Below, in pieces: positions 27,171-60,751 of a DNA stretch of 64,000 nt (the first letter of the stretch is position 1; each line of letters starts with the position of its first letter). Position numbers and translations under genes: made by a program. A model generated the notes under the pieces. It searched no databases. It saw nothing but the letters and a program-made list of their open reading frames with translations, and had not been told where the DNA came from. The DNA comes from Centroscyllium fabricii (lineage: Eukaryota), in NCBI GenBank assembly GCA_051313645.2, contig JBNRSN020000005.1, positions 64,728,001-64,792,000 of the forward strand. The letters run 5' to 3'.

Positions 27171-28530
27171 GGCAGCAATGGGGAGGTCACAGATACAACT
27201 TCTGCCTCTCACCATCTCCATCGTGATGTCTATTGGAATGTCAGGCTCTCTCAGTTTCTCCCTATTGAACAGCCAGTGATAAGTGCACCTGCATGAAGCA
27301 GGCATACCTGCCATACAAGAGTTGCAAAGTGCTCCACAATGCTCTATCCAAATGGCAAGTAATCTAAAGGAGATCGATTGCCATTTGGTCATCAGCAAAC
27401 CAGAAATGTACCACCATTTATTGAGTTGCTGCATTTAGGCCAGACTGATGTGTGCCCACCCACCTTCCTCCCCGCTCGAGAAAGCAACAAGATGATGCTT
27501 TGAAATCCCAGCTATTATTCAAATGTTCAAACAATGCTTTGTGGTGTATGTAACATCATTGTGCACTACTTTGTACCGTGGCAGGACACTGCAGTACTGC
27601 GGTCCGGCACTACTGCATATAAGTCTAAGCGTGGAGCGATACAGGTCAGTTCCAGCCTGTACCAAGATGAGTAAACGTCACCTGTAGTTTGTACCTGTAC
27701 AATTGAGTCTGTCGTTATTCATCCTCAATAGCGCGGCTTAACAATGGCGACGAGGTCGGTCGGACTCATAGCTGTGTTTTCGGCTACATCGAGAAATGAA
27801 AGGATTCATTCCGAACTGAAGTCGACCATCGACTGCTAAGGACCACCCTGCACTCCAGAAAGGGAGCGGCAGCGATTCAACAGCAGAGGGAACTCAGTGG
27901 GCCTACACTCCAACACGGGGAGTGGTGAGGCAGTTTTGCTCCAGCCAACAGAATTCGGCAGCAGCCGGCAGAATTCGGCAGCAGCCAGCAGAATTCGGCA
28001 GCAGGAACCAGCAGAATCGGCAGCAGGAGCCATCAGAATCGGGTGCCCAGCTCAGCAGTGGCAGGAAGGCCGCGAAGCAGGACCCAGCCAGCAGAAGCAT
28101 CGGACATCGGCTCCAGGTGGGGCCAGAACAACGGCAAACAAAGTCGCACACCGGGGTCAAACGGGAGGATCCAGGGTGATGAAGCCAATCACCAGAAGTG
28201 GTTGTCGAGGGCCAGGGGTGGTCCTCTGACCAGGAAAAAAAAAACGGCAGTTGCAGGTAGCGCGCAATCTTACTGTAGCTGCGGGGGAAAATCAGAGGCC
28301 CAGCGGGGGAGAGATGCGCAGAGGCGGGGAGACGCCATCTTTGGGCGGGAAGACGCTGGAAGGGACGTGCAATGGCGGGAAGACACCGGAAGAGATGCGC
28401 AAAGGCGGGACTAAGCGCCGGAAGAGACGCACAAGGGCGGGAAAAACGCCATCTTAGCGCGAGAAGAAACCGGAAAAGACGCGGGGAGGTGGGAGAAGAC
28501 GCCATCTTGACCGCAAAGAAATAAAATAAC

Positions 28531-41310: not shown

Positions 41311-43613
41311 ACCTCCAGGATGTTGATGGTGGGGTATTCGGCGATGGTAATGCTGTTGAATGTCATGGGGAGTTGGTTAGACTCTCACTTATTGGAGATA
41401 GGTATTGCCTGGCACTTCTGTGGCGTGAATGTGATCATTTAAGTTGCCCGAAAAGAACCTGATTTATAGGCTGCCATGTGACTAGTGTGAACAGGGGCTA
41501 GAAATGCTGAAATCCCAGTCAAACACAGACTGCTGGTAATTAAATCAGTAACTCATCAAGATGAGGATATGTTAATAGCCATTGATTTTTGCTGAACAGG
41601 TACAGGCAGCCTGATATTTTAATCAGAACGACAAAGACTCTTTTTTATATAGCGCCTTTAACGTAGTAAAACGTCTCAAGGTGTTTCACAGGAGTGGTAT
41701 CAGACAAAATAAGTTGCAATATTTATTAAACTATTCATTACTATGGAGATCCCGTATGTGTCCTAATTGTCTCCTTAGTTTTAATGAAGTTGATGTCCAA
41801 GAGTGTATGATTTATGAAAGAAGTATATTTATGTGTAACACAATGGAAATGGCATCCATTAAATGAATGGGTGAGATCAATGATGCTTTGATTTTATGGC
41901 CCTAGTGTTCCTAATTCCTGCAGGTTCTAATCTACCTCTACATGCTGTGGTTAAAGGAGCACCACCAGCATCAATCCCAGGAGATTCCTGAGATGTCACT
42001 GCCCTACATCCAAGAGGGCAGAGGTGAGTTCTACTGACACCAATGCAAGACATAAACCCTAAAAGCTGTCTCGCCTCGCACTGCAAGAGTGCAAATCCTG
42101 ACAAGGTGCACTGATCTGTTGGAGCACAGGACAATGTTGCTCCTGCTGGTCTGCAGTATGGTTCCGAATGAGTCAAAGTTGACCTTCATAGCATCCTGCA
42201 TTTTGTCACCTAAGACTCCCATAGCTGCAGTCTGAGCAGCCATCTGAGCTGCATAAACTGTGCTTATGAAGCTGCATCACCATGTGCCACAGCAACTGTC
42301 ACTTCAGACCCCAGACTCAAGAAGCCTTCTTCAACCTTATCCATGTACTTGAAACTGCTCAAGATGCTGGACACTCTTTCAAAGCATCCAGACCTTGCAC
42401 ACAATGCTTCTAGGGAGCCAAATGAAGTGAGCACACCACACACATGGTCCAGTATTCTCTGCTCAAAGTGTCCACTAAAAGGCCTACTTCATCACATGTG
42501 TCTGGAAGGGGCTTAAAGTGGCTGGAGCACCACACAGCAGCTCCAAGTCTCTTTGAAGACTCTCCTGGTGGAAAGCCTGTCACTAATAATGCTGCTACCT
42601 TCACCAAGTGAACACAGCTGTCCCTTCGCATTCCGTAAATTAGCATCCATCGTAGAAAACCTCATGCCAGGCACACGAGCACCTGATCTTAGTGCTGTAA
42701 TTGTGCTCAGCCTAAAGCAGCCTCTCTTTTCTCCAAGACTTCATTTACAAATACAGACAGAGACATATCTGTTAGTGAGCCTTCCCCTGTGTGCAGTTGA
42801 GACATAGTAACCCTGGAAGGGTAATGTGTGCAATTGGTTTAACATCACTGCGGGTTATATGTAAGAGATCAGCCACTTCAGAAGTTTGAAACCGGTGCTA
42901 AGAGGTAAATCAGGATTGGATGATTTCCAGGATTAACACTGTTGCCAAAGTGATATAAGATTGGTCCTAGCGGAAAACACATTTGATTACATATGGAAGA
43001 ACTTTGACATCAATAATCTGGAAAAATTGGGATATTAACAGTCTGAAGACCAATATTGCCATCAGTGTGCATTGGGCACATATATACAGGTTGTAACAGT
43101 CCAAAGGTATTGCACTTGTCGGTGGTGCTGTCAGCCTAATGTTACATAACATAATGTTATGCATTTATGATGAGTTAGACCAGTGCTCAGGGCTTGAATG
43201 GAAAGTTTATTTTGGTTCAAACATGCAAAATTGGATTTGAATTAAACTGAAAAGTGTACAGTTTGAAACTCTTTCAACATTTCATTTACATTGAAGTACT
43301 GCAAATGTGTGGACTTTCTCCAGTCTGAGAACAAGATTCCAACACTCTATCAATGTGAAAACTGCATTGCTTTTTTGTAGCGAAGTCGATAACCTAATTA
43401 AAAGGTGACAAGTCGGTACCGAATAGAAGGCTTTTAATTACTAAAGAATGGAGCTACTCTCCTCACGAGTTACAATACAGGAATGAATGAACTTGGGTCA
43501 GACCACACCTATACCGGGGCCTCACCTGGGGGAGGAGTCGGGGGTGTGGCTGACCTGGTTCTCGGCAGTGTCATAACAAACAGGGCTGTGCCTAACAGTT
43601 GCACAGCCCATTA

Positions 43614-46100
43614 TTAGCAGTGGTTATACAATGGTAATATAGTGGTAATATAATGGTTACCACATTCACCCCTTCTTAAAAACTTTGAGTCCGGGGGGGG
43701 TGAATGGATGGAACAGTTCATAATTAGTCTGTCCGGCGGTCGTGTCTGCCTGGCGGACCGCCGGAGCTCCGGTGTTGGTGGTGATGCCTCCCCGGTCGAA
43801 TAGCCCGCGTCTGTCGGCACTGTGGCTTCTGGACGTGGTGGGCTCGGCTGGGCCCCGGCGTCTGGGACGTAGTCGGGAAAACTCGGGGTCCATCTCGTGT
43901 CAGGTGGTTGGTCGACCTGCTGGCCAGCAGGGGGCGCTGTGGTGGTGTTACCGGCCGGGGCCAGGTCCCTGATGGACACGGTGTCCTCACACCCATCTGG
44001 GAACTGCACAAAGGCGTAGTGCGGGTTGGCGTGTAGGAGCTGTACCTTGTCCACCAGGGGGACCGTCTTCTGGTTCCGGACGTGCCTTCTAAGCAAAATC
44101 GGCCCCGGAGTCGTCAGCCATGGGGGGAGTGCCGTCCCCGAAGTCGATTTCCTGTTAAAGGAGAAAATAAGATCATGCGGGGTGGCGTTAGTAGCAGTAC
44201 ATAGTAGTGATCGGATAGAGTGCAGCGCATCTGGGAGGACTGCCTGCCAATGGGACACTGGAAGGCCTCTGGACTTGAGAGCCAGGGTGACCGCCTTCCA
44301 GATGATCCCATTCTCCCTTTCTACCTGGCCGTTCCCCCGGGGGTTATAACTGGTTGTTCTGCTCGTGGCAACCCCTTTTTGGAGCAGGAACTGGCGCAGT
44401 TCATCGCTCATGAACGATGACCCCCGGTCGCTATGGATGTAGCTGGGGAGACCGAAAATGGCGAACAGCGTGGTGAAGTGTTTGATCACCGTTGCGCTCG
44501 TCATATCTGGGCAGGGGAAGGCGAAGGGGAAGCGGGAGAACTCATCCACTACCGTGAGGAAGTATGAGTTGCGGTCGGTGGAAGGGAGGGGGCCTTTGAA
44601 GTCCACGCTGAGACGTTCAAAGGGGCGGGTGGCCTTGATGTGGTGAGTCGTGTCTGGCCGGAAAAAGTGGGGTTTGCACTCGGCACAGACAGGGCACCCT
44701 TGGGTCATAGCCTTGATCTCCGTGATGGAGTAGGGGAGGCTACGGGATTTGACGAAATGGGCGAGTCTGGTGACACCCGGGTGGCAAAGGCGGTCGTGGA
44801 GGTCCTTCAGCCGGTCTAGCTGGGCACTGGCGCACGTTCCCCTGGACAGTGCGTCCGGGGGTTCATTGAGTTTGCCTGGTCGGTAAAGAATGTCGTACTC
44901 GTAAGTCGAGAGTTCGATCCGCCACCGCAGGATCTTATCATTCTTGATTTTACCCCGTAGTTTATTATTAAACATAAACGCTACCGACCGTTGGTCGGTG
45001 AGCAGGGTAAAACGCTTACCGGCCAGGTAATGACGCCAGTAGCGCACGGCCTCCACAATGGCCTGGGCCTCCTTTTCCACTGCTGAGTGGCGAGTTTCGG
45101 GTCCCTGTAAGGTGCGGGAGAAAAACGCTATGGGCCTGCCTGCCTGATTCAGGGTGGCAGCAAGGGCAAAGTCCGAAGCGTCACTCTCCACCTGGAAGGG
45201 GATGGATTCATCAACAACGAGCATGGTCGCTTTGATAATATCTTCCTTTATCCTTGCGAATGCCTTTTGGGCTTCTACAGAAAGGGGGAAGACTGCAGCC
45301 TTGAGGAGTGGTCTAGCCTTGTCTGCGAACTGTGGGACCCATTGTGCATAATAGGAGAAAAATCCTAGGCATCTCCTCAAGGCTTTGGGGTTGTGAGGTA
45401 GGGGCAGTTCTAGCAGGGGTCGCATACGCTGTGGGTCGGGGCCGAGGACCCCGTTCTCCACCACATATCCGAGGATGGCGAGCCGGTTTGTATTAAAGAC
45501 ACATTTGTCTTTGTTATACGTAAGGTCCAGCTTAGCCGCCGTGTCGAGGAATTTGGCCAGATTGGCATCGTGGTCCTGCTGGTCGTGGCCGCAGATGGTC
45601 ACGTTGTCCAGGTAGGGGAAAGTGGCCTGCAAGTCGTTTTGGTCAACCATACGGTCCATCTCCCATTGGAACACGGACACTCCGTTGGTCACGCCAAAGG
45701 GGACCCGGAGGAAGTGGTAAAGCCGACTGTTCGCCTCGAAGGCGGTGTAGGGGCGGTCAGCTTTCCGAATCGGGAGCTGGTGATACGCCGATTTAAGGTC
45801 GATCGTGGAGAACACCTTGTACTGGGCGATCTGATTGACCATTTCCGAGATGCGGGGAAGGGGGTAGGCGTCGAGCCCGGTGTAGCGGTTGATAGTCTGG
45901 CTGTAATCGATAACCAGCCGTTGTTTCTCCCCAGACTTCACCACTACAACTTGGGCGTGCCAGGGGCTGGTGCTGGCTTCAATAATCCCCTCCTTCAGCA
46001 TCCGCCCGACCTCCGACCTGATAAACGTGCGATCCCCCTCACTGTACCGCCGAGTCTTTGTAGCAATAGGTTTGCACTTCGGATCTAGGTTGGCGAACAG
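43614..46100 (-). CDS. pol (RT, RNase H, integrase) of element A
   Basis: YLDN RT, ESDAS RNase H, HxxxxH...CxxC, SDRGSSF, NGQVER; open frame. Confidence 0.9.
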   Translation of the reverse strand: MFANLDPKCKPIATKTRRYSEGDRTFIRSEVGRMLKEGIIEASTSPWHAQVVVVKSGEKQRLVIDYSQTINRYTGLDAYPLPRISEMVNQIAQYKVFSTIDLKSAYHQLPIRKADRPYTAFEANSRLYHFLRVPFGVTNGVSVFQWEMDRMVDQNDLQATFPYLDNVTICGHDQQDHDANLAKFLDTAAKLDLTYNKDKCVFNTNRLAILGYVVENGVLGPDPQRMRPLLELPLPHNPKALRRCLGFFSYYAQWVPQFADKARPLLKAAVFPLSVEAQKAFARIKEDIIKATMLVVDESIPFQVESDASDFALAATLNQAGRPIAFFSRTLQGPETRHSAVEKEAQAIVEAVRYWRHYLAGKRFTLLTDQRSVAFMFNNKLRGKIKNDKILRWRIELSTYEYDILYRPGKLNEPPDALSRGTCASAQLDRLKDLHDRLCHPGVTRLAHFVKSRSLPYSITEIKAMTQGCPVCAECKPHFFRPDTTHHIKATRPFERLSVDFKGPLPSTDRNSYFLTVVDEFSRFPFAFPCPDMTSATVIKHFTTLFAIFGLPSYIHSDRGSSFMSDELRQFLLQKGVATSRTTSYNPRGNGQVERENGIIWKAVTLALKSRGLPVSHWQAVLPDALHSIRSLLCTATNATPHDLIFSFNRKSTSGTALPPWLTTPGPILLRRHVRNQKTVPLVDKVQLLHANPHYAFVQFPDGCEDTVSIRDLAPAGNTTTAPPAGQQVDQPPDTRWTPSFPDYVPDAGAQPSPPRPEATVPTDAGYSTGEASPPTPELRRSARQTRPPDRLIMNCSIHSPPPDSKFLRRGECGNHYITTILPLYNHC

Positions 46101-47965
46101 CGAGGGGGGGGTCGATTCTCAGGGTGGAGAGGCCGCAGGCCGGGGTCCACTTCGGGGGGGGGATTGTCCCGGCTACTGAGGGTGAGGGGGGGCAAGGTCC
46201 CGCCGAACTCCATTGTCACACTCCTGAAGTGGCACTGGAAGTCCAAGCCTAGTAAGGCTGGGGCACACAACCGTTTGAGGGTATACAATTTAAAATTACG
46301 GTACACGCGCCCCTGGATGGTGAGCGTGACGGAGCAGTAGCCAGTGACGTCCGCGGTGTGGGACTGTGAAGCTAGGGACACTTGGTAGTTGGTGGGCAGA
46401 ATCTGCAGTCCGCAGCGCCGCACTGTATCGGGGTGAATAAAGCTCTCGGTACTGCCCGTGTCGAGAAGGCAGTCGACAGTATGGTTATTAATCCCAATCG
46501 ATATGATTGAGTTAGACAGGTGATGGGGCCTGCTTTGACTAACTCTGGCTGCAGCAGCCCCTGCTGATAGGGACTGTGCACAAAATGGCGCCGCCCCTGG
46601 CTCGCACATGGAGGGGCCCTGGATGCAAGATGGCGCTGCCCCTGGCTCGCACATGGAGGGGCCCTGGATGCAAGATGGCGTCGCCCCTGGCCCGCAGCTG
46701 GTGGGACCCCGTGTAAAAGATGGCGGCGCCCCTGGCTCACACATGGAGGGGCCCTGGATGCAAGATGGCGCCTTCCGTGGCTCACACATGGAGGGGCCTA
46801 GGTTGTGGAGTGGCGTTTCTGAGGGGCTCTGACGCGCTGGCGGCGCCCGTGATTCGCACACAGCAAACCGCGGTGGTCGGGTTGGCGGTGCCCGTGATTT
46901 GCACACAGCAAACCGCGGTGAACGCGCTGGCGGCACCCGTGATTCGCACGCAGCGAACCGCGGTGAACGCGCTGGCGGTGCCCATGATTCGCATGCAGCG
47001 AACCGCGGTGGTCGGGTTGGCGGTGCCCGTGATTCGCACGCAGCCGGCCGCGTTGTAGGGTCGCGCTTGGCCGGTCGCCGCTGCATCGGGGTGGGGGAAG
47101 GGGGCGCTTGCCGTCGCTGGATTGCACTGCTAACGCAGCTTACCTGCTGGTGGTTGATCTCACAGGCTGCACTGTTGTACCTTTTCTTAATCGCTGCTGG
47201 AGCCGATTTGCAGACCTTGGCGAAGTGTCCCTTCTTTGCGCATTTCTCGCAGGTCGCTACCCTGGCTGGGCATTTCGCTCTGGGATGCAATCCTTGGCCG
47301 CAGAAGTAACAGTGCTTGTTTTTAATGTTTTTAGTGTCCGTGGTGGCCGTCGCGGCCATCGTGGGGCTCTCGGGCCGTGGCGCCTGTTGTGGCGCGGCCC
47401 ATACATTGTAGGCTTGCTGGTTTGTGCTGCCGTATGTCTGTGATTTATTACGGGCCCCTTCCACCGATTTGGCCAACGTGGTTGCCTCCTCAAGGGTCAA
47501 GTTATCCCTTTCCAGTAGCCTCTGACGGGCTTCTCCGCATCTCAGCCCAGAAACATAAGCGTCCCGAATGAGGAGTTCTTCCTCCTGTGCAATAGTTAAT
47601 GTGCCCTTGCAGCCACATGCCCGTACCAGGGCCCGGAGCGCTTGCTCAAACTCCTCGTTAGACTCACCCGGTAGCTGGGATCGGGTCGCTAGCATGTGTC
47701 GGGCGTAGACGGAATGGACCGGGCGCTCATAGCACTTCTTGAGGGTCGCCACAGTTTCTTCGTATATAGTAATGTCCATGACGAGGGTGAAAACCCTGCT
47801 GGAGATCCTGGATCTCAGGACTTGTAGCTTGTCCCCGTCCGTAGTAGCCTTGGCGGCTGCTGTATAGGCCTGTAGTAGGCCGAACCAGTGCTTGAAGGTA
47901 GCTGGTGCCGCGGCGTCCTGGGGGCTAATGTCCAGCTCCCTAGGCTTTACCGTGTTGCTCTCCAT
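46085..47965 (-). CDS. gag-protease of element A
   Basis: CYFCG...H...C and CEKCAKKGHFAKVC knuckles, Pro/Cys tandem repeats, LDTGS protease. Confidence 0.88.
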   Translation of the reverse strand: MESNTVKPRELDISPQDAAAPATFKHWFGLLQAYTAAAKATTDGDKLQVLRSRISSRVFTLVMDITIYEETVATLKKCYERPVHSVYARHMLATRSQLPGESNEEFEQALRALVRACGCKGTLTIAQEEELLIRDAYVSGLRCGEARQRLLERDNLTLEEATTLAKSVEGARNKSQTYGSTNQQAYNVWAAPQQAPRPESPTMAATATTDTKNIKNKHCYFCGQGLHPRAKCPARVATCEKCAKKGHFAKVCKSAPAAIKKRYNSAACEINHQQVSCVSSAIQRRQAPPSPTPMQRRPAKRDPTTRPAACESRAPPTRPPRFAACESWAPPARSPRFAACESRVPPARSPRFAVCKSRAPPTRPPRFAVCESRAPPARQSPSETPLHNLGPSMCEPRKAPSCIQGPSMCEPGAPPSFTRGPTSCGPGATPSCIQGPSMCEPGAAPSCIQGPSMCEPGAAPFCAQSLSAGAAAARVSQSRPHHLSNSIISIGINNHTVDCLLDTGSTESFIHPDTVRRCGLQILPTNYQVSLASQSHTADVTGYCSVTLTIQGRVYRNFKLYTLKRLCAPALLGLDFQCHFRSVTMEFGGTLPPLTLSSRDNPPPEVDPGLRPLHPENRPPPRCSPT

Positions 47966-48489
47966 TTAAAATTTAGTAATTAAAATTGTAGCGAAGTCGA
48001 TAACCTAATTAAAAGGCGACAAGTCGGTACCGAATAGAAGGCTTTTAATTACTAAAGAATGGAGCTACTCTCCTCACGAGTTACAATACAGGAATGAATG
48101 AACTTGGGTCAGACCACACCTATACCGGGGCCTCACCTGGGGGAGGAGTCGGGGGTGTGGCTGACCTGGTTCTCGGCAGTGTCATAACAAACAGGGCTGT
48201 GCCTAACAGTTGCACAGCCCATTATTAGCAGTGGTTATACAGTGGTAATATAGTGGTAATATAATGGTTACCACATTTTTTTATTTACCATTGCTGTTAA
48301 TGTTTACGCAGCTGCTTATATTTGTGCCCTCAGTGGTTTGGGAACAAGAATTACACTGAATTTCAGCCTATGATGTAGTTAAACTAAAAGTGCAGAGGAG
48401 TTTGTACTTATAACTTCAGCTACAGGTATTCCCAACATTCCATCACTTGATCAAAGCAATTGTCTTCAGCCCCTGCCATAACTTTGTTC

Positions 48490-54351: not shown

Positions 54352-54739
54352 TAAGGGACTAATATTTACTTTAGCTACTCTCTTCCTTTTTATATACCTG
54401 TAGAAGCTGTTACTATCTGTTTTAATGTTTCTTGCCAGTTTACTCTCTGACGTATCGTCAAGATCTTCAATTAAAAGAGTCGACGCGTAGTTACCGAAAC
54501 TAAAGGCTTTTAATTACTAAAGAACGGAGCTACTCTCCTCATGAGTTACTATACAGGAATGGAAGGAGCCTTGGTCAGACCACACCTATACCGGGGCCTC
54601 ACCTGGGGGAGGAGTCGGGGGTGTGGCTGACTTGGTTCCCGGCAGTGTCATAGCAAACAGGGCTGTGCCTAACACTTGCACAGCCCATCATTAGCAATGG
54701 CTATACAGTGGTAATACAGTGGAAAGATGGTTACCACAT

Positions 54740-57200
54740 TCACCCCTTCTTAAAAACTTTGAGTCCGGGGGGGGGTGAATGGATGGAACAGTTCATAATT
54801 AGTCTGTCCGGCGGTCGTGTCTGCCTGGCGGACCGCCGGAGCTCCGGTGTTGGTGGTGATGCCTCCATGGTCGAATAGCCCGCATCTGTCGGCGGTGTGG
54901 CTTCTGGCTGCGGTGGGCTCGGCTGGGCCCCGGCGTCCGGGACGAAGTCGGGGAAACTCGGGGGCAAACTTGTGTCAGGTGGTTGGTCGACCTGCTGGCC
55001 AGCAGGAGGCGCTGTGGTGGTGTTTCCGGCCGGGGCCAGGTCCCTGATGGACACGGTGTCCTCATGCCCGTCTGGGAACTGCACAAAGGCGTAGTGCGGG
55101 TTGGCGTGTAGGAGCTGTACCTTGTCCACTAGGGGGTCCGTCTTGTGGTTCCGGATGTGCCTTTTAAGGAAAACCGGCCCCGGCGTCGTCAGCCATGGAG
55201 GGAGTGCCGTCCCCGAAGTCGACCTCCTGTTAAACGAGAAAATAAGATCGTGCGGGGTGGCGTTAGTAGCAGTACATAACAGTGATCTGATAGAGTGCAG
55301 CGCATCTGGGAGGACTGCCTGCCAATGGGACACTGGAAGGCCTCTGGACTTGAGAGCCAGGGTGACCGCCTTCCAGACGATCCCATTCTCCCTTTCTACC
55401 TGGCCGTTCCCCTGGGGGTTGTAACTGGTCGTTCTGCTCGTGGCAACCCCTTTCTGGAGCAGAAACTGGCGCAGTTCATCGCTCATGAACGATGACCCCC
55501 GGTCGCTATGGATGTAGCTGGGGAGACCGAAGATGGCGAACAGCGTGGTGAAGTGTTTTATCACCGTTGCGCTCGTCATATCTGGGCAGGGGAAGGCGAA
55601 GGGGAAGCGGGAGAACTCATCCACTACCGTGAGGAAGTATGAGTTGCGGTCGGTGGAAGGAAGGGGGCCTTTGAAGTCCACGCTGAGACGTTCAAAGGGG
55701 CGGGTGGCCTTGATGAGGTGCGCCGTGTCTGGCCGGAAAAAGTGGGGTTTGCACTCGGCGCAGACAGGGCACTCTTGGGTCATAGCCTTGATCTCCGTGA
55801 TGGAGTAGGGGAGGCTACGGGATTTGACGAAATGGGCGAGTCTGGTGACACCCGGGTGGCAAAGGCGGTCGTGGAGGTCCTTCAGCCGGTCTAGCTGGGC
55901 ACTGGCGCACGTTCCCCTGGACAGTGCGTCCGGGGGTTCGTTGAGTTTGCCTGGTCGGTAAAGAATGTCGTACTCGTAAATCGAGAGTTCGATCCGCCAC
56001 CGCAGGATCTTATCATTCTTGATTTTACCCCGTAGTTTATTGTTAAACATAAACGCCACCGACCGTTGGTCGGTGAGCAGGGTAAAACGCTTACCGGCCA
56101 GGTAACGACGCCAGTAGCGCACGGCCTCCACGATGGCCTGGGCCTCCTTTTCCACTGCTGAGTGGCGAGTTTCGGGTCCCTGTAAGGTGCGGGAGAAAAA
56201 CGCTACGGGCCTGCCTGCCAGATTCAGGGTGGCAGCAAGGGCAAAGTCCGAAGCGTCGCTCTCCACCTGTAAAGGGATAGATTCATCAACAGCGAGCATG
56301 GTCGCCTTGATAATATCTTCCTTTATCCTTGCGAATGCCGTTTGGGCTTCTACAGAAAGGGGGAAGACGGCAGCCTTGAGGAGTGGTCTAGCCTTATCTG
56401 CGAACTGTGGGACCCATTGTGCATAATAGGAGAAAAATCCTAGGCAACTCCTCAAGGCTTTGGGGTTGTGAGGTAGGGGCAGTTCTAGCAGGGGTCGCAT
56501 ACACTGTGGGTCGGGGCCGAGGACCCCGTTCTCCACCACATATCCGAGGATGGTGAGCCGGTCTGTATTAAAGACACATTTGTCTTTGTTATACGTAAGG
56601 TCCAGCTTAGCCGCCGTGTCGAGGAATTTGGCCAGATTGGCATCGTGGTCCTGCTGGTCGTGGCCGCAGATGGTCACGTTGTCCAGGTAGGGGAAAGTGG
56701 CCTGCAAGTCATTTTGGTCAACCATACGGTCCATCTCCCGTTGGAACACGGACACTCCGTTGGTCACGCCAAAGGGGACCCGGAGGAAGTGGTAAAGCCG
56801 ACCGTTTGCCTCGAAGGCGGTGTAGGGGCGGTCAGCTTTCCGAATCGGGAGCTGGTGATACGCCGATTTAAGGTCGATCGTGGAGAACACCTTGTACTGG
56901 GCGATCTGATTGACCATTTCCGAGATGCGGGGAATGGGGTAGGCGTCGAGCCCGGTGTAGCGGTTGATAGTCTGGCTGTAATCGATAACCAGCCGCTGTT
57001 TCTCCCCAAACTTCACCACTACAACTTGGGCGCGCCAGGGGCTGGTGCTGGCTTCAATAATCCCCTCCTTCAGCATCCGCCCGACCTCCGACCTGATAAA
57101 CGTGCGATCCCCCTCACTGTACCGCCGACTCTTAGTGGCGATAGGTTTGCACTTTGGATCGAGGTTGGCGAACAGCGAGGGGGGATCGATTTTCAGGGTG
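54740..57200 (-). CDS. pol (RT, RNase H, integrase) of element B
   Basis: Open frame, highly similar to element A pol. Confidence 0.9.
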
Positions 57201-59084
57201 GAGGCCGCAGGCCGGGGTCCGCTTTGGGGGGGGATTGTCCCGGCTACCGAGGGTGAGGGGGGGCAAGGTCCCGCCGAACTCCATTGTCACACTCCTGAAG
57301 TGGCACTGGAAGTCCAAACCTAGTAAGGCTGGGGCACACAACTGTTTGAGGGTATACAATTTAAAATTACGGTACACGCGTCCCTGGACGGTGAGCGTGG
57401 CGGAGCAGTAGCTGGTGACGTCCGCGGTGTGGGACTTTGAAACTAGTGAGATTTGGTAGTTGGTGGGCAGGACCTGCAGTCCGCAGCGCCACACTGTATC
57501 GGGGTGAATAAAGCTCTCAGTACTGCCCGTGTCAAAAAGGCAGTTGACAGTATGATTGTTAACGCCAATCGGTCTTATTGAGTTAGACAGGTGATGGGGC
57601 CTGTTTTGGTTAACTCTGGTTCCGGTTGCAGCAGCCCCTGCTGATTGGGACTGTGCACAAAATGGCGCCGCCCCTGGCTCGCACATGGAGGGGCCCTGGA
57701 TGCAAGATGGCGTCGCCCCTGGCCCGCAGCTGGTGGGACCCCGTATAAAAGATGGCGCCGCCCCTGGCTCGCACATAGGGGGGCCCTGGATGCAAGATGG
57801 CACCGCCCCTGGCCCGCAGCTGGTGGGACCCTGTACAAAAGATGGCGCCGTCCTTGGCTCGCACATGGAGGGGCCCTGGTTGTGGAATGGTGTTACTGGG
57901 GGGCCCTGTGAACGCGCTGGCGGCGCCCGTGATTCGCACGCAGCGAACCGCGGTGAACGCGCTGGCGGCGCCCGTGATTCGCACGCAGCGAACCGCAGTG
58001 AACGCATTGGCGGTGCCCGTGATTCGCACGCAGCGAACCGCGGTGGGTGGGTTGGCGGTGCCCGTGATTCGCACGCAGCGAACCGCGGTGATCGGGTTGG
58101 TGGTGCCCGTGGTTCGCACGCAGCCGGCCGCGTTGGGGGGTTGCGCTTGGCCGGTCGCCGCTGCATCGGGGTGGGGGATGGGGGAGCTTGTTGATTACCT
58201 CGGGACCGTCGCTGAATCGCGCTGTTAATGCAGCTTACCTGATCTCTGTCGATCTCACAGGCTGCACTGTTGTACCTTCTATTAGAAGCTGCTGGAGACG
58301 CTGCTGGAGACGCTGCTGGAGCAGATTTGCAAACCTTAGCGTAGTGTCCCTTCTTTGTGCATTTCTCACAGGTCGCTGTCCTGGCTGGGCATTTTGATCT
58401 AGGATGCAGTCCCTGGCCACAGAAGTAACAGCGCTTCCTTTTAACATCTTCAGTGGCCGTCGCGGCCATCGTGGGGGTCTCGACCAGTGGCGCCCAGGCC
58501 TGGGCCTGTTGTGGCATGGCCCATATGTTGTAGGCTTGCGGGTTAGTGCCGCTGTACGCCTGTAACTTTCTGCGGGCCCCCTCTACTGATTTGGCTAACT
58601 TGGTTGCCTCATCGAGGGTTAGATCGTCTCTTTCTAATAGCCGCTGGCGGGCTTCCACACACATTAGTCCTGTTACATAAGCGTCCCGAACGAGGAGTTC
58701 TTCCTCCTCTGCAATAGTCGTGCCTTTGCAGCCACAGGCCCGTACCAGGGCTAGGAGCGCTTGCTCAAAGTCTTCGTTCGACTCACCCGGTAGTTGAGAT
58801 CTGGTCGCTAGCACATGTCGGGCGTAGACCGAGTGGACCGGGCGCACGTAGCATTTCTTTAAAATCTTAACGGTCGCTTCGTAGGTTGTGGCATTCTTGA
58901 CAAGGGTGAATACTCTGCTGGAGATCCTAGATCGCAGGACATGTCGCATGTCTTTGTCTGCTAAAGCCTCGGCGGCTTCCATGTAGGCCTCCAGTAGGCC
59001 GAACCAGTGTTCGAAAGTGGTCGGAGCAGCAGGGTCCTGGGGGCTGATGTCCAGCTTCTCAGGCTTCACGTTGTAGCTATCCAT
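57132..59084 (-). CDS. gag-protease of element B
   Basis: Two zinc knuckles, tandem repeats, FDTGS protease. Confidence 0.88.
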   Translation of the reverse strand: MDSYNVKPEKLDISPQDPAAPTTFEHWFGLLEAYMEAAEALADKDMRHVLRSRISSRVFTLVKNATTYEATVKILKKCYVRPVHSVYARHVLATRSQLPGESNEDFEQALLALVRACGCKGTTIAEEEELLVRDAYVTGLMCVEARQRLLERDDLTLDEATKLAKSVEGARRKLQAYSGTNPQAYNIWAMPQQAQAWAPLVETPTMAATATEDVKRKRCYFCGQGLHPRSKCPARTATCEKCTKKGHYAKVCKSAPAASPAASPAASNRRYNSAACEIDRDQVSCINSAIQRRSRGNQQAPPSPTPMQRRPAKRNPPTRPAACEPRAPPTRSPRFAACESRAPPTHPPRFAACESRAPPMRSLRFAACESRAPPARSPRFAACESRAPPARSQGPPVTPFHNQGPSMCEPRTAPSFVQGPTSCGPGAVPSCIQGPPMCEPGAAPSFIRGPTSCGPGATPSCIQGPSMCEPGAAPFCAQSQSAGAAATGTRVNQNRPHHLSNSIRPIGVNNHTVNCLFDTGSTESFIHPDTVWRCGLQVLPTNYQISLVSKSHTADVTSYCSATLTVQGRVYRNFKLYTLKQLCAPALLGLDFQCHFRSVTMEFGGTLPPLTLGSRDNPPPKRTPACGLHPENRSPLAVRQPRSKVQTYRH

Positions 59085-60751
59085 TTTATCCGTTTTAAAA
59101 TAATTTAGTAATTAAAATTGACGTATCGTCAAGATCTTCAATTAAAAGAGTCGACGCGTAGTTACCGAAACGAAAGGCTTTTAATTACTAAAGAACGGAG
59201 CTACTCTCCTCACGAGTTACTATACAGGAATGGAAGGAGCCTTGGTCAGACCACACCTATACCGGGGCCTCACCTGGGGGAGGAGTCGGGGGTGTGGCTG
59301 ACTTGGTTCCCGGCAGTGTCATAGCAAACAGGGCTGTGCCTAACACTTGCACAGCCCATCATTAGCAATGGCTATACAGTGGTAATACAGTGGAAAGATG
59401 GTTACCACACTCTCATCATTCATCTCTCTCTTTATTTTTATTTTTGTCATCCTTTGCTGGTTTTTAAAAATTTCCCAATCCTCTCGTCTCCCACCAATCT
59501 TGGCAACATTGTATGCCTTTGTTTTCAATTTGATACCATCCTTTACTTCCTTAGTTAGCCACGGATGGTGCTCCCATCTCTTAATATATTTCTTTCTCAC
59601 TGGAATATATTTTTGTTGAGAGTTATGAAATATCTCCTTAAATGTCTGCCACTGTATTTCAACTGTCTTACCCTTTAATTTATTTTTCCAGTCCACTTTA
59701 GCCAGTTCTGCCCTCGTGCCATTGTAATTGCCTTTGTTTAAGATCAGGACTCTGGTTTGAGATACAACTTTCTCACCCTCCAACTGCATTTGAAATTCAA
59801 TCATGCTATGATCACTCTTTCCTCGAGGATCCTTTACTATGAAATCATTTATTAATTCTGTCTCATTACATAGTACCAGATCCAAGATAGCCTGCTCCCT
59901 GCTTGGTTCCATTACATACTGTTCTAGGAAACCATCCTGGATGCATTCTATGAACTCTTCCTCAAGGCTACCATGGCCAATTTGATTTGTCCAATCAGTA
60001 TGGAGATTAAAATCATCCATGATTATTACTGTACCTTTTTTACAGGCCTCCATTATTTGTTAATTTATACTCTGTCTAACAGTATTGCTACTGTTCGGTG
60101 TCCTGTAGACTACGCCCACCAGAGACTTTTACCCTCTATTATTTTTTATCTCCACCCAAACCGATTCTACATCTTGATCTTCTGAGCCAATATCACTTCT
60201 CACCACTGCACTGATCCCATCCTTTACCAACAAAACGACCCCACCTCCCTTTCCTTTCTGTCTAACCTTCCGAATTGTCAAATAACCTGGAATGTTCAGC
60301 TCCCAGCCCTGGTCACCTTGCAACCAAGTCTGTAATGGCGATCAGATCATAGCCAATTGTATCTATTTGTGCCGTCAACTCACCTATCTTGTTACGAATG
60401 CTGTGTGCATTCAGATATAGAGCTTTTAACTTTGTCTTTCTACCATTCCTCCTTGTTTTGGCCCCATTTTCTGTTGCACTCTTATTTTTAAACATTGTCC
60501 CTTCCTGTCACACTCTGGTTCTTATTTCCCCCATCTCTATCCTGCTCTATTACTTTTTCATTTTTCATTGACATTTTTAATTCCCGCTCACCTGGATCCT
60601 ACCCCCATTATTTAGTTTAAAGCCCTCTCTACAGCCTTAGTTATTCGATTCGCCCGGACTGTAGGCCCAGCATGGTTCAAGTGAAGCCCATCCAAATGGA
60701 ACAGCTCCCTCTTATCCCAGTACTGGTGCCAGTGCCCCACAACTCAAAACA

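Follow-up and report, generated by a model that had tools for sequence, protein, structure and literature searches.

What is the role of a 14-bp complementarity between the long terminal repeat (LTR) and the leader of two retrotransposons of Centroscyllium fabricii? The two elements, A and B, lie on the minus strand of a 64,000-nucleotide stretch (contig JBNRSN020000005.1, positions 64,728,001 to 64,792,000; in the following, the window) and are young, full-length Ty3/gypsy LTR retrotransposons (B at 59409–54448, A at 48275–43376). A first-pass annotation of the window took the complementarity as part of a switch able to distinguish the two LTRs for polyadenylation or priming. Of these two roles, priming is favored by the evidence: Judging from sequence comparisons, the LTR arm of the duplex very probably replaces a transfer RNA (tRNA) as the primer of reverse transcription, a Tf1-like self-priming in a gypsy clade without chromodomain. 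A polyadenylation switch is possible but not general, the poly(A) hexamer being absent from the duplex in eight of 18 distant families.

In B, the LTR arm (the candidate self-primer, 14 nt, 59179–59192, minus strand like all features of A and B below) is the exact complement of the candidate primer-binding site (PBS) at 59104–59117, with which it covaries. In A, the arm at 48043–48056 is likewise the complement of the candidate PBS at 47972–47985. All four LTRs of A and B contain the 14-mer, whereas its complement follows just the two 5′ LTRs, so that both the pair reported for B and its restriction to the 5′ LTR are confirmed. A duplex equal to 14 bp is obtained in 0/300 LTR shuffles for each element, and folding gives z-scores of −2.1 to −3.1 if the leader is included, compared with −0.75 and −0.06 if it is not.

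The leader arm begins one base (A59118 in B, with the LTR end at 59119) after the LTR-terminal CA and without a tRNA-type TGG (no tRNA library was searched). In the two other gypsy elements of the window, at 27540–27743 (plus strand) and about 41030 (minus strand), CA is followed by one A and then by TGG. In chromodomain elements of the same genome, CA and one G precede an 11-base complement of their own LTR (six of the seven fetched regions; the seventh has no such element). Because the one-base register is that of the TGG-type elements and of the chromoviruses of the genome, the leader arm is assigned as a PBS, though not of the tRNA type. The available sections of PMC6317226 take as self-priming at least 10 bases complementary to the LTR, starting 0–5 bases behind the 5′ LTR; here, 14 bp are found at an offset of 1. 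A search of Rfam gave three chance matches only, far below threshold.

About 60,000 junctions of this type occur in the genome, found with four non-overlapping patterns (7,541, 9,313, 38,687, and 6,234, the last with 52 control matches). In 54 same-genome rows sampled from the first matches listed, arm and PBS form Watson–Crick pairs in 317 of 324 cells at positions 8–13. On the gag tree, each of these positions shows 0–6 changes, with similar counts on both arms. Pairing falls to 22/54, 11/54, and 30/54 at positions 14, 15, and 16. Over the whole genome, 9,313 of 9,640 junctions are paired at PBS position 8, the excluded state having been counted as well in order to remove the pattern bias; among the 327 unpaired junctions, many of those listed resemble, by eye, G-arm subfamilies with a CpG change. 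The subfamily ladder of these junctions constitutes a natural compensatory-mutation series for RNA structure.

An arm-breaking base at position 12 is present in 163 junctions, of which 40 were fetched and 31 have an identifiable 3′ LTR. The break is confined to the 5′ LTR in 31/31 and shared by both LTRs in 0/31, and must therefore have arisen after insertion. Elsewhere in the LTR, 23 of 96 single-element alleles are common to both LTRs (29 LTR pairs, two poorly aligned ones being left out), a background that is inflated, as discussed below. In the sampled copies, no break of the duplex has been handed on by transposition; the 14-bp duplex exists as described and is subject to selection.

The comparison of A with B reveals much less. 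Upstream of the arm, their U3 regions are identical in 200 of 220 columns (91%), and 14 identical bases there have a p of about 0.26. The identity of the 14-mer between A and B is therefore weak evidence of special conservation relative to the neighboring sequence; the family-wide covariation supplies that evidence. The two elements, described at first as clearly diverged, are clearly different only in U5 (29/39 and 10/21 identical) and in the leader, but not around the arm.

The same duplex is found far outside this genome. A metagenome sample contained 89 loci, 31 of them with a long direct repeat, and 21 were kept with an LTR pair around an open reading frame (ORF); of the ten dropped, eight were repeats that were internal or due to contig overlap, one was a duplicate, and one had a truncated LTR. 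A perfect duplex of 10–19 bp at the one-base register occurs in 17/21 loci; in the remaining four, it is interrupted by one or two mismatches or has an end that is shifted. These loci yield nine distant families, all with the duplex (9/9) and each with a different PBS sequence, which excludes a single host RNA as primer. Three further families of the same genome pair arm and PBS over 13–15 bp. Among 18 distant representatives, which were chosen for having the duplex and include families from a scan reporting positives only, its length is 11–19 bp. Immediately past the arm, a helix of 3 bp or more begins in 15/18 (by eye), and AATAAA or ATTAAA lies inside the arm in 10/18, the other eight keeping the duplex without it. 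In this clade, the arm is only 23–69 bases from the LTR end and the gag ATG follows within about 15–45 bases. Members of this animal clade (L140–L148) also occur in contigs filed as bacterial metagenome-assembled genomes, probably through host contamination.

With the position, complementarity, covariation, and selection of the duplex established, a mechanism can be proposed by analogy with Tf1, in which the RNA's initial 11 bases anneal to the PBS, with RNase H cleaving between bases 11 and 12 (available sections of PMC7175516, PMC4600332, and PMC5341516). The RNA of A and B would start at, or a few bases before, the LTR arm, and the arm would fold back onto the PBS. The RNase H of the element would then cut at the 3′ end of the arm, just before the conserved RCC stem, and minus-strand synthesis would begin at the released 3′ OH, one base from the end of the LTR. 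ATTAAA (59180–59185 in B, a candidate poly(A) signal) also lies inside the arm, so that the helix would incidentally mask it at the 5′ LTR. Where the PBS is absent, the shorter inner copy in U5 may pair weakly with the arm. The short stem directly 3′ of the arm (GCC...GGT, 59164–59178) is weak in B and outside its minimum-energy fold; in relatives, there is a clear RCC(T)...(A)GGY helix.

Several points weigh against self-priming as just described. Where transcription starts, where poly(A) is added, and where RNase H cuts are assumptions carried over from Tf1. Positions 1–7 of the 54 rows are fixed by the search patterns and have no weight, and position 8 is fixed for 19 rows. Subfamily alleles raise the background of 23/96, two elements alone contributing 12 of the 23, although 11 are still left without them. 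A self-primer is copied by plus-strand synthesis, and here, too, the primer may template the PBS; among rare single-copy changes, however, 0 are compensated versus 163 uncompensated. That test had little power, since all 31 checkable variants are post-insertion. Seven copies of B with a variant PBS were also checked for a matching change in the arm, and none has it. In L176 (G000:C1:732250–733150), the LTR/leader helix is 24 bp or longer and includes the gag ATG, so that the start of the RNA may lie upstream of the arm. For two rows from a single sister family, folding favors the inner helix over the PBS if the RNA starts 18 bases before the 3′ end of the arm. A TATA-like stretch, TATAGTAA, about 30 bases upstream in B is absent from A and from the sister subfamilies and was dropped as evidence for the start site. 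Poly(A)-tailed retrocopies, sought in order to place the cleavage site, gave 0 matches. In families other than L176, the gag ATG stands just behind the helix, so that the fold may also affect translation.

The inner U5 copies noted in the first-pass annotation near 48007 and 59140 are present: CTTTTAATT at 59140–59148 in B (9 bp) and its counterpart at 48006–48015 in A (10 bp). The copy mimics the start of the PBS and stands where a U-rich downstream poly(A) element is to be expected; an equal match occurs in 1/500 U5 shuffles for each of A and B. In the predicted 5′ folds of B and A, it occupies the upper stem and loop of a U5 hairpin (59127–59156 in B), with its inner bases unpaired at P 0.81 and 0.90. 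In the 3′ LTR context, a helix between arm and inner copy is predicted with P 0.18–0.90 in B (depending on the upstream length) and 0.42–0.97 in A; in the 5′ context, pairing with the PBS reaches 0.97 versus 0.00–0.01 for the inner helix. The predicted energies are −6.2 to −6.5 kcal/mol for the AU-rich inner helix versus −11.9 kcal/mol for the PBS. The proposed exchange of two exclusive partners is thus predicted by folding in A and B. The predicted value in the 3′ context, however, runs from 0 to 1 across the 17 rows with a copy (0.95–1.0 in one sister family), and the inner partner is missing in several sister subfamilies and in the distant families. A partner of at least 7 bp was sought in the 18 distant representatives and none was found, the longest being 6 bp; none was seen either in the further same-genome families of the 6,234-junction pattern.

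Covariation separates the two partners. The inner copy could be scored in 45 of the 54 same-genome rows (the nine others being five with a short U5, two more distant, and two with a degenerate copy). Its variable position is paired in 34/45 rows (G–C 22, A–T 11, T–A 1) and the next two positions in 19/45 and 4/45. In the group of 9,313 copies, that position is, by eye, mispaired in ~84 and matched in ~16 of 100 listed copies. Covariation thus holds between arm and PBS but not consistently in U5. On the gag tree, rows with A in the arm and C in the inner copy stand between the G–C rows and the starred group of A and B, in which the inner base pairs once more. This resembles a single compensation with delay; at the PBS, by contrast, matching is immediate. 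At the place of the inner copy, a GU/U-rich run is found in the subfamilies that lack it, which suggests that the site is first of all a downstream poly(A) element. We consider the alternative fold plausible, on the predicted structures, for A, B, and their nearest sisters and not as a general LTR switch, and the inner copy as likely a later, secondary addition in one shark sub-lineage. The sister family of L155 and L169, with an inner helix of 11 bp that folding favors over the PBS for an RNA start near the arm, is the best natural case for the switch question. The U5 loop was also considered for a palindromic kissing-loop contact; by eye, however, it lacks self-complementarity in most subfamilies. 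The sequence TGACG/CGTCA allows a small terminal hairpin at the LTR end of B (59119–59131) and of many subfamilies, where it competes with the lower U5 stem; it is absent in A.

These observations bear on several other explanations. That the pairings serve mainly to distinguish the 5′ from the 3′ LTR in polyadenylation, the PBS duplex and the inner hairpin being mutually exclusive in the manner of the HIV-1 polyA hairpin, appears quite improbable. Such a precedent exists (PMC2645353, in the sections available), ATTAAA is inside the arm of both A and B, the inner helix appears in predicted folds lacking the leader and gives way once the leader is included, and three types of pairs occur at the variable inner position. 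However, all 18 distant families and several sister subfamilies lack the inner copy, some with no hexamer in the arm either. Where the copy is present, it mispairs in 11/45 rows at the variable position, in 26/45 at the next one, and in most listed copies of the large group. The inner hairpin would, moreover, mask the signal in the 3′ LTR, which requires it, and the fixed one-base register and the missing tRNA site would be left unexplained. The odds are about even that the inner copy is just the U-rich downstream poly(A) element, or a hairpin loop, resembling the PBS by chance and having no part in pairing, which is compatible with self-priming. Its position some 30 bases after the arm, the GU/U-rich run that replaces it, and the persistence of mismatches in thousands of copies all agree with a chance resemblance. 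The rarity of equal matches among the shuffles does not, nor do the retained AAT core, the variable base that follows the arm in most subfamilies, the matching inner change that comes after the arm change in the group of A and B, and the 11 bp reached in the one sister family.

Other alternatives concern the source of the primer. The arm could come from the 3′ R, from the second RNA of a dimer, or from an internal site of a longer transcript, instead of the capped 5′ end. We regard this as unlikely, though it draws on the presence of the arm in both LTRs, on helices continuing past 14 bp in some families (17–24 bp), and on the short distance between arm and LTR end compared with the 410–460 bases in chromoviruses. 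The sharp end of pairing at 13–14 bp in most subfamilies fits a primer with a defined 5′ end instead, and many rows have an initiator-like pyrimidine–purine step 3–5 bases before the arm (by eye). A wider proposal is that the 5′ arm on the PBS is the self-primer and the 3′ arm sits on the exposed U5 loop, the same pairings gating the poly(A) signal, with an origin apart from Tf1/sushi; we give it a rather small chance. Its further part, in which the two arms (5′ R and 3′ R) hold their two partners simultaneously and not exclusively, the RNA ends being joined for minus-strand transfer, seems to us doubtful to the same degree. The 3′ copy of the U5 loop would be expected to lie past the poly(A) cut. 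Finally, an unusual host RNA, a half-tRNA or other, could be the primer, with the match to the LTR secondary. A loose PBS pattern is common to the families (TTT at positions 1–3, C at position 10), and half-tRNA priming exists in copia lineages according to the available sections of PMC6317226. Yet PBS positions 4–9 and 12–13 vary among families and track the LTR of each element, neither TGG nor an Rfam match near threshold is found, and the covariation largely refutes this explanation, which is highly improbable.

The remaining features of A and B are those of the Ty3/gypsy group, with TG...CA LTRs, a target duplication, and a polypurine tract. In B, the 5′ LTR (59119–59409, 291 bp, TG...CA) has two differences from the 3′ LTR (54448–54738), which contains arm and inner copy without a PBS; the target duplication is the 5-bp GAGAG and the polypurine tract is at 54739–54751. 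In A, the 5′ LTR is at 47987–48275 (289 bp), the 3′ LTR at 43376–43664, and the target duplication is AAAAA. The gag–protease frame of B (57132–59084), with two CCHC knuckles and 45-bp repeats, has its ATG 34 bases past the LTR end; the reverse transcriptase (RT)–RNase H–integrase frame (54740–57286) has a YLDN motif and no chromodomain match. Gag–protease and pol are in different frames in both A and B; many genomic copies have a single frame of ~1,450–1,500 codons. A domain search of the frames gives the gypsy order protease–RT–RNase H–integrase between the two LTRs, and the best match of the proteins to a solved structure is Ty3-G Gag–Pol (E 1e-52). Instead of the usual YxDD, A, B, and most of their relatives have YLDN; a few have YLDD. 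The 45-bp tandem repeats (57576–58235 and 46499–47155) separate the zinc knuckles from the protease, and gag is longer than in the metagenome relatives. The nearest named proteins are from rays, a catshark, and a sea anemone, in keeping with a cartilaginous fish as host and a clade of marine animals. This clade may be the one called Cigr-1 (about 4 kb, single ORF, marine hosts). Cigr-1 is listed as a clade of Ty3/gypsy for tunicates and molluscs in the available sections of PMC6238403; motifs of our clade were not found in the readable supplement files of PMC8556966 and PMC6238403. A search of viral contigs gave no relatives of A and B.

Compared with known systems, the PBS behind the 5′ LTR, complementary to the LTR of the element itself and without a tRNA site, is as in Tf1/Tf2 of S. 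pombe, Tj1 of S. japonicus, and the Tf1/sushi and Tcn1 chromoviruses. The chromoviruses of the same genome (L237–L243, abundant and sushi-like) share the self-primer signature with its one-base spacer, but their duplex is 11 bp instead of the usual 13–14 bp here and their arm is 410–460 bases from the LTR end instead of 23–69. Different from Tf1/sushi are also the poly(A) hexamer often contained in the arm and a gag with two CCHC knuckles whose ATG follows soon after. At the integrase C terminus of the B pol frame, the Chromo profile that finds the chromoviruses of the genome gives no match. The RT is 31% identical to that of these chromoviruses, and in an RT tree of 27 rows (after dropping 11 redundant, partial, or misassigned ones), the 22 rows of the clade and the three chromovirus rows are on separate starred branches. 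The two may share an origin: A sister grouping with chromoviruses is not rejected (approximately unbiased test, p 0.28, with one chromovirus lineage, two outgroups, and long branches). Given the missing chromodomain match, the RT identity, and the separate branch, the elements, which would work like Tf1, should not be filed as Tf1/sushi.

Outside chromoviruses, self-priming has been predicted for the TAR (Houba, Osr-1) elements of Ty1/copia in plants, with the rule of at least 10 bp starting 0–5 bases behind the LTR (PMC6317226, sections available); they belong to another superfamily and host kingdom, and theirs is a prediction only. In HIV-1, according to the available part of PMC2645353, the poly(A) hexamer lies in a helix present in both terminal repeats. 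Such a hexamer-hiding hairpin is predicted for A and B and is absent or weak in most relatives; unlike in HIV-1, the PBS is the stronger partner here, and most relatives can do without the AU-rich inner helix. For a possible role of the inner copy, a precedent is CYC5:CYC3 of Ty1, where a 5′ sequence pairs with the 3′ end of the RNA and aids reverse transcription (PMC4974528, in part), although Ty1 itself is tRNA-primed. The literature accessible outside subscription journals and Repbase, in the sections available, describes self-priming for Tf1/Tf2/Tj1, sushi, Tcn1, and the TAR copia elements and not for this clade. Self-priming was demonstrated for Tf1 and deduced mainly for its chromovirus relatives. 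If the present assignment is true, it would extend to a large marine-animal gypsy clade without chromodomain, with a much shorter layout in which primer and poly(A) signal overlap. Self-priming would then be much more widespread among animals than so far described, perhaps with more than one origin. Elements of this kind would offer no tRNA site to silencing by tRNA fragments, and PBS-based annotation would miss them.

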